DNA from: Escherichia phage CLB_P2
Sequence record: OL770107
Strand: one strand, 5' to 3'
Length of the DNA: 64,000 nt
This document shows positions 18,064-57,453 of the stretch, piece by piece. The position numbers and the translations under genes were made by a program. Each line of letters begins with the position of its first letter. The first letter of the stretch is position 1. The notes below the pieces were generated by a model. The model saw nothing but the letters and a program-made list of their open reading frames with translations, ran no database searches and was not told where the DNA came from.

Positions 18064-18223
18064 TATAAATAATAATATGGATTGGCTGATGCCATACAGA
18101 GCTTTGCTGGTGTATGGGGTTAGCTAATCCTAAGCGGTGGACTACAACTGAGAGACTTGCCGAAAGGAAGTGAAATTCAGAAGAACGTGTCCACCAATCT
18201 TTATCTCGAATTGAGAATTTAAA

Positions 18224-32616: not shown

Positions 32617-33739
32617 TTTTAACCTTCGGTGGTTCTTCAATCTTAATAGGCTTACCATTAGTAAACATATAAAGGTTTGTAATTGATGTATTGTTACTCA
32701 CTTCATGAATAACTTCGTCTACATAAAAATCGTACTGGAATTGGTTTTTAGGGTCATAGAAATTAATCTTATCACCTGGAGTTAATTCAAAGTTCCCATA
32801 TACCTTACAATGAGCATAACCATCGTACTGGGCCATTGTAACTAATCTATCAGCTTCTTCAAATCCATTTCGGTAGGTATAATCAGAATATCCACCTGAA
32901 CGAGAAACCAATATACTGTTTTGTCCATCACCAAAAGTAATTCGTGTAGCGTTTTTATCTAGGAACGAATGGGCATATACTGTAGCATTTTCGTATGGCT
33001 TTCTGGTATGTTGGTTAGCTTTAGTTAGCCACTCAAAATCAAATGCAATAGGGGTATCCATATCTTGGACGTATTGGCCTATTAAACGAGGCTCACCAAC
33101 CACAAAATTGATAGGCTCCTGATTAACCATAAATTCGTAGTCCATGATAGAAATACCATCTATATCTTCCCAGACAAATACAAATTTATCGGATTCAACA
33201 GCCATACCTACTTCTCGCACAAATTCCATATATCTGTCCATAGAATCACACCACGGAACATTAGGAACGTAAACGTTTATTCCGTTCAAAGGAGGAGCAA
33301 GTAACGGACGGTCTTGGTAAATAACACCAATCATTTCTGTTAATGTTTCTTGAACGCTAGGGAAGAACATACGTCCGAATTTAAGATTTTCTAAAAAGTG
33401 GATAGGGGCGAGTTGTATTGTTATGATATTGTCGCCCTTAGAATCCACCCCTACTGCAAAGTGTTTACTTCCGTAAATTCTTGATTGGGTACGTTCAGAG
33501 TTGGCATTCTTAACAGAAACTTGGATAATTTGTTCACCATCCATTTTAGTATGAAGGTTTTTTGCATCATAAAACTGGAGCAATCCTTCATTACTACCGT
33601 AAAGGCCATCACGCATTGTTAGGGTAGTAAATGTCGCGCCTAGTTCAACAAAACGATGCTCTAACCAGGCGTCATAATCTTCGTAAAGGCGTATACTAAT
33701 ATTAGGAAAGCCTTCACGCTGCATAGTTTTTGAACTCAT
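32570..33739 (-). CDS. 27: baseplate hub subunit gp27 (389 aa)
   Basis: Strong match to remembered T4 gp27 ([38 protein letters not shown]). Confidence 0.92.
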
Positions 33740-34488
33740 TTCTTAAGGTCCTTTTCAACCAAAGACAAAGCAATACCGCGTTCGATTGGAATCATCTGCA
33801 TAATGCTTTCTAATGAATAATTGTTCTTTACCAATAAATGGTTTATTTGGTAAAATAAAAATATCTCATCCGGATTGACTATAAGCTTAAACACCTCTAA
33901 AATATCGGTATACGTAATTGTTCTACGATTACAGCATCCATATTTGAGTTCGAAATGAATAGGGCTTGTTTGTTTGACTATATCCTCTAAAGTGGATAAG
34001 TCTATAGCATCTATTACGGCCAACTGGTCTTCTTCAGAAAGGTCAGTCCAATTATATGTCCCATTTTCATCTTCGACGGTTTGGAGGGTGTTCAAAATCA
34101 ATTCAGATTTGTCGTGATATTCTATTTCCGGAAATTTGAATGTTAGTTTCAAGCCAGCCACTTCAATTGTAGGGTTATCTAACTTGGCCTGTTTCAAATT
34201 GAATAAGACTTGTTTATCCTTTTCACACTTACTGCAAGTGTATCGGATAGGAATTTTGGTCTTGCCGAGTGATGACGTGTAAAGTTCAATGAACATATAC
34301 GGGCGCCATGACATAGGATATTCACCGAAGTATTCTTCCAGTAACTCATCTAAAATTTGTTTTTGCTCTTCAGGTGATTTATTATTCATGTCATTTCGAA
34401 TCAAAATAAAATCACGATAATCAGCTACTGTAAAAGGTTTAAATCGGTGGACTCCATCGGGCATTTCACAACGTACTATATTAGCCAT
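33736..34488 (-). CDS. 51: baseplate hub assembly catalyst gp51 (249 aa)
   Basis: Start at ATG 34488 (MANIV...) gives 249 aa, the T4 gp51 length; preceded on the minus strand by TATAAATA and SD AGAGGA. Confidence 0.8.
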
Positions 34489-34508
34489 AGGGTGTCCTCT
34501 TATTGATG

Positions 34509-34520
34509 TATTTATAAATA
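34509..34520. promoter_or_regulatory. palindromic bidirectional late promoter TATTTATAAATA (genes 51 and 26)
   Basis: The 12-mer contains TATAAATA on both strands, each about 20-25 nt upstream of an SD and ATG (gp51 on minus, gp26 on plus). Confidence 0.6.
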
Positions 34521-34538
34521 AGCTTAAAGGAGAAGACA

Positions 34539-35162
34539 ATGAATTATACTTTTGACGTAAAAATTAAAAACAAAACCATAAAATGCAGAGCATTTACCCT
34601 CAGAGAGTATAAGGACTTGCTCCAAGCTAAATTAGAAGGCAGAATAGAGTCCTTTATCAATGAACTCATTTCGAATTGCACAGATGCTCGTGATTTAAAC
34701 AAGCAAGAATCTGAGCTCCTGGTGATAAACCTGTGGGCCCATTCATTAGCTGAAGTTAATATAGAACGTGAGTGGGTTTGTAGTTGTGGTCGCTCACAGG
34801 TTGTTCCTATGACACTAACTCGCGCAACATTAGGTAAAGAGCCAGATGTTATTAAAGACTTTGGCAACTTTAAAATCGTGTTCAGATATCCTAAACTCTT
34901 TGAAGATAAAAATAGAGCTATGATGGTCGCAGGGTGTATCGATTATATTTTAACTTCTGCAGGCGAAAAGCTTTTTCTTTCCGATTTAAGTGATGCGGAA
35001 CTTGATGACCTTTATTCTGTGATAACAGAAAAAGATATAAAAGAAGTTTATGATGCTCTAGTTGCCCCTAAGCCTATTTTGGCCATACCTATTTCTTGTG
35101 AATGTGGTGAACATACCGTCCATGTTATTGAGGGACTTAAAGAGTTCTTTAAGGTGATGTAA
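34539..35162 (+). CDS. 26: baseplate hub protein gp26 (207 aa)
   Basis: Length near T4 gp26, divergent from gene 51, with late promoter and SD AAGGAGAAG. Confidence 0.8.
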   Translation: MNYTFDVKIKNKTIKCRAFTLREYKDLLQAKLEGRIESFINELISNCTDARDLNKQESELLVINLWAHSLAEVNIEREWVCSCGRSQVVPMTLTRATLGKEPDVIKDFGNFKIVFRYPKLFEDKNRAMMVAGCIDYILTSAGEKLFLSDLSDAELDDLYSVITEKDIKEVYDALVAPKPILAIPISCECGEHTVHVIEGLKEFFKVM

Positions 35163-35551
35163 TGAATATCAATAAAATGTATTCAGATTTAGACCCTGAA
35201 ATGAGGACGTCTTGGAATAGAGACGTCGCTAAAGCTACAGGGGCCCGTGCAGTAAAAAACAGTTTGCTAGGCATTATTACCACCCGTAAGGGTTCTCGCC
35301 CTTTTATGCCTGAATTCGGTTGTGATATCAGTAATCAACTATTTGAGAATATTACTCCATTAATCACGGATACCATTAAGCGTAATATAGTTTCCGCTGT
35401 GCGGAACTTCGAACCCAGAATTTCTGCTCTTGCCGTAGGCGTTACCCCTGTTTATGATGACAACTCTATTATAGTAACCGTCCAGTTTAGTATTGTTGAT
35501 GACCCGGATACATTAGAGCAAATTAGAATCCAGCTCTCACAGAGTGGTTAA
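35162..35551 (+). CDS. 25: baseplate wedge protein gp25 (129 aa)
   Basis: Size and position after gene 26 as in T4. Confidence 0.85.
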   Translation: MNINKMYSDLDPEMRTSWNRDVAKATGARAVKNSLLGIITTRKGSRPFMPEFGCDISNQLFENITPLITDTIKRNIVSAVRNFEPRISALAVGVTPVYDDNSIIVTVQFSIVDDPDTLEQIRIQLSQSG

Positions 35552-38147: not shown

Positions 38148-38170
38148 TATAAATATAATTATATTTATAC
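38148..38170. promoter_or_regulatory. divergent late promoters (inh on plus, uvsW on minus)
   Basis: TATAAATA at 38148-38155 on the plus strand and its complement TATTTATA at 38163-38170, each about 30 nt from its ATG. Confidence 0.5.
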
Positions 38171-38869: not shown

Positions 38870-40282
38870 ATGGCTTTTACTGTAAGTATAGCCGGCGCTG
38901 CGTCTATTAAAATAGGCGAAAGCGCCAACTACACTGCTACCGCAACAGGTGCAGCTGTAGAAGGAACCGTTACATATGTATGGACCATTGACGGTGCTTC
39001 TAATCCGGAGGCAACCAATGTTTTGAGATATACCGGTGCGGCTCCAGCTGGTAAGAAAGTTTTAAAAGTAGTAGCAACTTCTACTCCGGCCGAAGGCGAA
39101 CCTGAGGTAGCTGAAAAAACTTTTGAAGTTACCGTAGCTAATAAGACCATGACTATTTCTTTGGCCTTAGACCCTACTTCCGTTTCTAAAGAAATTGGCC
39201 AGTCCCAAGTTGTTACTGCTAACGTGACGGGTGCTCCTGCTGGTGCTACAATTGCTTATGTTTGGAAACGTAATACAACTGTAATTTCAGGACAAACTGG
39301 TAAAACTATTACTGTAACCGAAGCAGCAGAAGCAAATTACACGTTGAACTGTGAAGTTACTGTTACCGCCCCTGAATATGACCCGGGTACCGCTACTAAA
39401 GGTGTTGCGGTAACTTTTGTTAAGAAAACTATATCAGGTGCTTCCGTTACTTTAACACCAGCCTCAATTAGTACAGAGAAAGGCTCATCTGCACAGTTTA
39501 AAGCGGATGTAGTTGGCGCTCCTTCCGGCGTAAATGCAACTTATTCTTGGAAGAAAAATGGTTCTATTATTCCAGGCGAAAGCAGTAATATTCTTGCCGT
39601 CGATACATCTACAATAGGTTCTTACTCTATTGAAGTTTCGGTACTCCTAAAAGGTACGGATTATAATGATTTAACCGTTACCAAAACAGGAAGTGTAACA
39701 ATTACTAAAAAGACTATGGCAGGTGTTTCTGTTAATTTAACGCCTGCTTCTATTACTGTCTCTGAAGGAATCCCGGCTTCTTTTAAAACCACGGTAGTCG
39801 GTGCGCCTAGTGGTGCTACTTTTGCTTATTCTTGGAAGAAAGATGGTTCACCTGTTGTGGGTGCTACGGATACATTAGTAATTGACACAAGCGCTGAAGG
39901 TTCACAGGTTATTGAAGTTTCTGTTGTGGTTTCGGCTACCGACTATAATTCTGTGACCGTCACAAAATCCGGTAATGTAACAATTACGGCTAAAGTCGCT
40001 CCTGAACCAGAGGGCGAACTACCTTACGTTCATCCGCTACCAGTTCGTAATTCAGCTTATATTTGGTGTGGTTGGTGGGTTATGGACGAAATTCAGAAAA
40101 TGACCCTTGAAGGCAAAGACTGGAAAACTGACGAACCTGATAGTGAATATTATCTCCATCGTTATACCCTTCAAAAAATGGTAGCCGATTATCCTGAGGT
40201 TGATGTACAGGAATCTCGTAATGGTAGAATTATTCACAGAACCGCTTTGGATGCTGGAATTATTTACGATTACGTTTATTAA
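38870..40282 (+). CDS. hoc: Hoc outer capsid decoration protein with four Ig-like domains (470 aa)
   Basis: C-terminal capsid-binding region (AKVAPEPEGELPYVHPLP...AYIWCGWWVMDEIQKMT.EGKDWKTD...EVDVQESRNG) matches T4 Hoc; four Ig-like repeats each with the Y.W pattern. Confidence 0.92.
   Translation: MAFTVSIAGAASIKIGESANYTATATGAAVEGTVTYVWTIDGASNPEATNVLRYTGAAPAGKKVLKVVATSTPAEGEPEVAEKTFEVTVANKTMTISLALDPTSVSKEIGQSQVVTANVTGAPAGATIAYVWKRNTTVISGQTGKTITVTEAAEANYTLNCEVTVTAPEYDPGTATKGVAVTFVKKTISGASVTLTPASISTEKGSSAQFKADVVGAPSGVNATYSWKKNGSIIPGESSNILAVDTSTIGSYSIEVSVLLKGTDYNDLTVTKTGSVTITKKTMAGVSVNLTPASITVSEGIPASFKTTVVGAPSGATFAYSWKKDGSPVVGATDTLVIDTSAEGSQVIEVSVVVSATDYNSVTVTKSGNVTITAKVAPEPEGELPYVHPLPVRNSAYIWCGWWVMDEIQKMTLEGKDWKTDEPDSEYYLHRYTLQKMVADYPEVDVQESRNGRIIHRTALDAGIIYDYVY

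Positions 40283-55143: not shown

Positions 55144-57453
<2,310 letters not shown>

Follow-up and report, generated by a model that had tools for sequence, protein, structure and literature searches.

Overlapping divergent late promoters predicted at a palindromic 12-mer that separates baseplate genes 51 and 26 in a JS98-like Dhakavirus

The window, that is, the whole 64-kb stretch of DNA that was analysed, contains two divergently oriented baseplate genes separated by a gap of only 50 nt (34489-34538), which lies between the start codons ATG 34488 on the minus strand and ATG 34539 on the plus strand. Gene 51 (33736-34488, minus strand) encodes the baseplate hub assembly catalyst, a protein of 250 aa, and gene 26 (34539-35162, plus strand) encodes a baseplate hub protein/assembly chaperone of 207 aa. 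Both products were recognized by their identity with the T4 and JS98 proteins and by their match to PF12322, each covering nearly the full length of this Pfam family (E-values of 7e-57 and 1e-51). At protein level, gp51 and gp26 were 51 and 50% identical, respectively, to their T4 orthologues, and at DNA level the region showed about 96% identity to the part of JS98 where genes 51 and 26 are annotated. Because the JS98 annotation and the T4 identity of both proteins agree, the gene names that the earlier note had given from the letters alone are correct. The 1.9 kb around the palindrome described below were 100% identical to Dhakavirus CLBP2, 99.8% identical to phage dhaeg and about 96% identical to JS98, and the locus is that of a JS98-like Dhakavirus. 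In the annotation of JS98, genes 54-48-29-28-27-51 are placed on one strand and genes 26-25-uvsY on the other. The start codon of gene 51 was set at ATG 34488 because of the JS98 annotation and of the N-terminus MANI(I/V)RC of the T4 protein; the ORF of 267 aa with a TTG start that appears in the mechanical ORF list was discarded as an over-extension of this gene.

Besides sharing a protein family, gp51 (33739-34488, minus strand) and gp26 (34539-35159, plus strand) are paralogues that diverge from the palindrome, with 21% identity over about 200 aa (E-value of 2e-5) when compared with each other, and the locus is therefore roughly two-fold symmetric about the promoter. At the distal end of gene 26, its stop codon and the start codon of gene 25 overlap at 35162. 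For this 26/25 junction (about 35100-35170 here), a split ribosome-binding site joined by an RNA stem has been reported in T-even phages (Malys and Nivinskas 2009, cited in PMC3014915).

The palindrome is a perfect 12-mer, TATTTATAAATA, located at 34509-34520 within the gap and present as a single copy in the window. It consists entirely of two opposed copies of the T4-type late-promoter box TATAAATA, one at 34513-34520 on the plus strand, assigned to gene 26 (and 25), and the other at 34509-34516 on the minus strand, assigned to gene 51 (and 27-28-29-48-54). The central TATA is common to both boxes, which overlap by 4 bp. On each strand the exact box is followed by a Shine-Dalgarno sequence and then by the ATG, at 18 and 20 nt. 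The Shine-Dalgarno sequence of gene 26 is AAGGAG (34527-34532, plus strand) and that of gene 51 is AAGAGGA (34495-34501, minus strand), and each lies 6 nt before its start codon. By placing the box at -13 to -6 (Nolan 2006), the transcription starts were predicted at A34526 for gene 26 and at A34503 for gene 51. Both predicted starts are thus adenines, they are 23 bp apart, and the Shine-Dalgarno sequences lie within the predicted leaders, of 13 nt for gene 26 and 15 nt for gene 51. A scan of 34200-34800 against Rfam gave matches at chance level only (E-values of 0.4 or more) and no family fits. The description in the earlier note of a palindromic 12-mer at these positions, with the same box on both strands and a Shine-Dalgarno sequence and start codon on each side, was borne out by all these observations.

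How unusual this sequence is depends on what is counted. Taken together, the 12-nt palindromes of the window are no more frequent than expected, 19 having been seen against 19.7 ± 4.4 in shuffled sequences, and a general enrichment was rejected. The word TATTTATAAATA itself, in contrast, was expected 0.01 times in shuffles preserving dinucleotides and was seen once. What is non-random is this word, its placement and its conservation, and not 12-nt palindromes in general. The box TATAAATA is enriched as well, with 16 copies in the window against 7.1 ± 2.8, and 13 of the 16 copies precede a long co-oriented ORF by 14-63 nt. Two exact copies, at 18064-18071 (plus strand) and 55646-55653 (minus strand), are off the usual pattern: after one of them the next 150 nt contain no ORF start, and the other lies just 4 nt before an ATG.

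Comparison with the equivalent T4 junction had been proposed in the earlier note as a way to check the promoter. In T4 (NC_000866) the identical 12-mer was found at 116450-116461, in a gap that is also 50 nt long and between the same divergent genes. The exact 12-mer was also located between the start codons in JS98, TH22 (Gaprivervirus), RB69 (Mosigvirus), CF1 (Moonvirus), CF-SP2 (Gelderlandvirus), CBH8 (Winklervirus), Klebsiella phage Biddle, Enterobacter phages MY742 and SonariX, Acinetobacter phage AbTZA1 (Twarogvirinae), Proteus phage Pm5461 (Bragavirus) and Providencia phage PSTCR6, in gaps of 45-65 nt. Absence of the palindrome from relatives that keep the gene arrangement had been named as evidence against the promoter; among the public phage records, 13 of the 15 other sampled phages with divergent genes 51 and 26 carry it, and in a separate sample, obtained by a gp26 profile search of IMG/VR, it was exact in 46 of 47 loci. 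Relatives bearing the 12-mer have gp26 proteins whose identity goes down to about 31-35%.

To measure this conservation position by position, the intergenic sequences of 60 loci, 31 of them distinct, were aligned on the 12-mer. Its 12 positions are invariant (2.0 bits), and the bases immediately on either side hold 0.1 bits. Flanking positions as a whole hold 0.1-0.6 bits, which leaves no conserved -35 or other upstream element. Beyond the 12-mer, information rises only at the ribosome-binding sites and at two adenines, each located on the sense strand 6 nt past an end of the 12-mer (1.5 bits on the gene 26 side and 1.7 bits on the gene 51 side). The positions of these two adenines are exactly the +1 expected with the box at -13 to -6.

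Several relatives depart from this layout. RB49 carries TATTTATAAAATA, a 13-mer with one extra A (about positions 1450-1465 of its locus sequence), in which only the box on the gene 51 side is exact. Aeromonas phage ZHF has a 10-mer palindrome, TATTTAAATA (about 1465-1475 of its locus sequence), and Pseudomonas phage PspYZU05 has two complete and separate boxes in crossed order (1462-1484 of its locus sequence). In the unannotated Aeromonas phage AsFcp_1, only a box of the CTAAATA type was found upstream of the gp26 homologue. A natural control is offered by RB16, in which genes 54-51-26-25 are on one strand, so that 51 and 26 are in tandem and co-oriented, and the 3.4-kb locus of this phage contains no match to [TA]ATAAATA. 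RB16, together with RB49, ZHF and PspYZU05, indicates that the pair of boxes accompanies the divergent junction and that the 4-bp overlap is usual but not obligatory. The junctions of RB49, ZHF and PspYZU05 also illustrate ways in which a bidirectional promoter can be rebuilt.

A second pair of divergent late-promoter boxes is present in the window at 38148-38169. The plus-strand box (38148-38155) is directed towards inh (ATG 38189) and the minus-strand box (38162-38169) towards uvsW (ATG 38133), the latter gene having been identified by Pfam. As the plus-strand box lies to the left of the minus-strand one, these promoters are crossed. The earlier note had cited this pair as a similar back-to-back arrangement ending at 38170; the pair of late promoters was found as described, but its geometry is crossed and not back to back, and the pair ends at 38169. 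The starts are predicted at A38161 (plus strand) and A38156 (minus strand), and with them the 5' ends of the two transcripts would overlap by 6 nt and each predicted leader would contain the complement of the other box. The pair forms a perfect palindrome of 22 bp, TATAAATATAATTATATTTATA, and no other perfect palindrome of the window reaches 16 nt. The idea that this palindrome was selected as such was rejected, because JS98, with the spacer TAACTA, and T4, with the arrangement TATAAATA-TAGATA-TATTTATT, retain both 8-mers at a spacing of 6 bp but lack full symmetry. Some differences around this locus were also observed. In T4, the homing endonuclease gene segE lies between the inh/uvsW promoter and uvsW. 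The ORF that follows inh here, in the position of hoc (38870-40282, plus strand), encodes 470 aa with matches to immunoglobulin domains, and the annotated hoc of JS98 has 849 nt (282 aa); the length of the head decoration protein seems to differ within the genus.

The late promoters of T4 consist of an 8-bp TATA box, placed roughly one turn of the helix before the start and with no -35 element, which is read by gp55 on the host core RNA polymerase, and T4 late transcription can run in either direction. Activation is due to the gp45 sliding clamp, which acts via gp33 and gp55, and cryo-EM has placed gp45 around the upstream DNA beside the polymerase. In the present phage, the exact 8-bp box is found on both strands and adjoins orthologues of T4 virion genes. 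The gene for gp55 is not encoded in the 64-kb window; Dhakavirus IME341, whose locus is 95.7% identical to the one described here, encodes a gp55 with 79% identity to that of T4. Judged from sequence, the 12-mer very probably constitutes overlapping divergent late promoters of T4 type, orthologous to the promoters of T4 genes 26 and 51. The proposal of the earlier note that it acts as a bidirectional late promoter for these two genes is supported by comparative and literature evidence, namely its conservation, the match with T4 and the predictions and annotations already made for other phages.

Alternative explanations were also considered. First of all, the palindrome could work in one orientation only, the other TATAAATA arising incidentally from the half-symmetry of the box, with the corresponding operon transcribed from elsewhere. 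Partial symmetry is indeed cheap, as the box opens with the palindromic TATA, and not all of the 50 listed T4 late sites have been proven active in vivo (Geiduschek review). However, a single box needs 8 bases, yet 12 are invariant and their neighbours are free to vary, and an adenine is kept at the predicted +1 on both sides. Furthermore, the first gene of each operon starts in the 50-nt gap with nothing co-oriented upstream of it, no further box within 1 mismatch was found at 34300-34750, and PspYZU05 retains two full boxes even though they are laid out differently. These data make the use of a single orientation very unlikely.

The palindrome could also, or instead, be bound by a dimeric protein, such as a late-promoter-binding factor similar to DsbA, that would regulate both operons. 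Its perfect dyad symmetry is what such a site would have, and the reported binding sites of T4 DsbA are A/T-rich and overlap two late promoters. Nevertheless, the dyad extends no further than the 12 bases that two boxes need, the flanks being asymmetric and unconserved, and the inh/uvsW pair of JS98 keeps its two 8-mers with the palindrome broken. The affinity of DsbA is low and it had no effect in vitro. We give this explanation as little credit as the preceding one.

A host sigma-70 promoter acting in both directions by its -10 element alone, with early or middle instead of late use, appeared less probable again. The sequence TATAAA matches TATAAT at 5 of 6 positions, and symmetric -10 elements often drive divergent transcription from starts 23 bp apart. 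However, a scan of the gap for sigma-70-like promoters and terminators found nothing, there being no -35 partner in it, and the TG of an extended -10 motif is absent before either box. In addition, the flanking genes are structural late genes, and the full 8-bp late consensus is invariant, which goes beyond a hexamer. Finally, chance as the origin of an A/T-rich palindrome devoid of function has practically no weight, for although the number of 12-nt palindromes in this window, which is 60% A+T, is that expected by chance, the word itself is expected far less than once, and its invariance across genera in which the neighbouring intergenic bases have diverged excludes chance.

Under the preferred reading of two overlapping late promoters, the following scheme can be proposed. 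Late in infection, the host core RNA polymerase carrying the sigma-like gp55 and the co-activator gp33, and tethered to the gp45 clamp, would recognize the 8-bp TATAAATA at this distance of about one turn of the helix from the start. The plus-strand box (34513-34520) would start the transcript of genes 26-25 near A34526, and the minus-strand box (34516-34509) that of genes 51-27-28-29-48-54 near A34503. The two boxes can share 4 bp because each of them opens with the self-complementary TATA, and the palindrome would be a mere consequence of this sharing. With no more than 23 bp between the predicted starts, two polymerases should not fit at once, so that each initiation would pick one direction, and the choice should depend on the polarity with which the gp45 clamp is loaded. 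The sequence, its geometry and its conservation were observed directly and the gp55/gp33/gp45 mechanism is that of the literature, whereas we infer these exact start sites, the mutual exclusion and the role of the clamp polarity.

A further step would be that the near-invariance of the overlapped geometry, and not just the presence of two promoters in the gap, is itself functional. As only one polymerase could act at a time and the orientation of gp45 would pick the strand, the promoter might be a toggle that senses the polarity of replication and sets the ratio between the hub operons; along with this, the palindrome might lie on the axis about which a gene and its promoter were once duplicated in inverted orientation, an ancient event from which the PF12322 paralogues 51 and 26 would descend. 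We consider this extended proposal rather doubtful.

The bidirectional late promoter between genes 51 and 26 is already known, and the window adds one more member to it. Overlapping promoters for the divergently transcribed base plate gene cluster were reportedly mapped in T4 by Scarlato et al. (1989, Virology 171:475). The T4 GenBank records contain no promoter features at the 51/26 junction. For RB69, the late promoters Pl:118620 (plus strand) and Pl:118672 (minus strand) were predicted (Nolan et al., 2006, additional file 5), and both of the 43-nt prediction windows span the 12-mer. In the GenBank records of Pm5461 (KP890823) and Tequatrovirus Lutter (MT682714), the two overlapping 8-mers are annotated as promoters on opposite strands. 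It is on account of this earlier work that we regard the feature as known. The equivalents in RB69, Pm5461 and Lutter do not differ in kind from the one described here and are computational predictions too.

Past correct annotation, the finding matters little: it marks where the two transcription units of the baseplate hub begin in a JS98-like phage. The T4 arrangement is among the most strictly conserved non-coding words of these phages, and it provides a clean natural example, outside sigma-70, of how a half-symmetric promoter box gives a bidirectional promoter. It could also serve in phage engineering as a compact bidirectional part with late-specific activity.

Among known systems, the closest is the T4 26/51 pair itself, with which the locus shares the 12-mer, the gap length, the orthologous genes, about 50% identical in protein sequence, and the same flanking operons. 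The difference is that the T4 box is 3 nt closer to gene 51, and the predicted leaders are therefore of 12 and 16 nt in T4 versus 15 and 13 nt here. The inh/uvsW pair of this phage, T4 and JS98 is alike in that two opposed TATAAATA boxes serve divergent late genes, but unlike those of 51/26 its boxes are separate, crossed and spaced by 6 bp. A wider likeness is with the sigma-70 bidirectional promoters described by Warman, Grainger and colleagues, in which both strands use one short DNA-opening element that is almost symmetric, two opposed polymerases cannot be bound at once and so exclude each other, and 23 bp is a common spacing of the divergent starts. By analogy, the geometry predicted for the 12-mer, with its 4-bp overlap and its starts 23 bp apart, would resemble this reported class. 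The two would differ in that the phage promoter has gp55 specificity, an 8-bp element and no -35, and in that the orientation of a sliding clamp would set its polarity.
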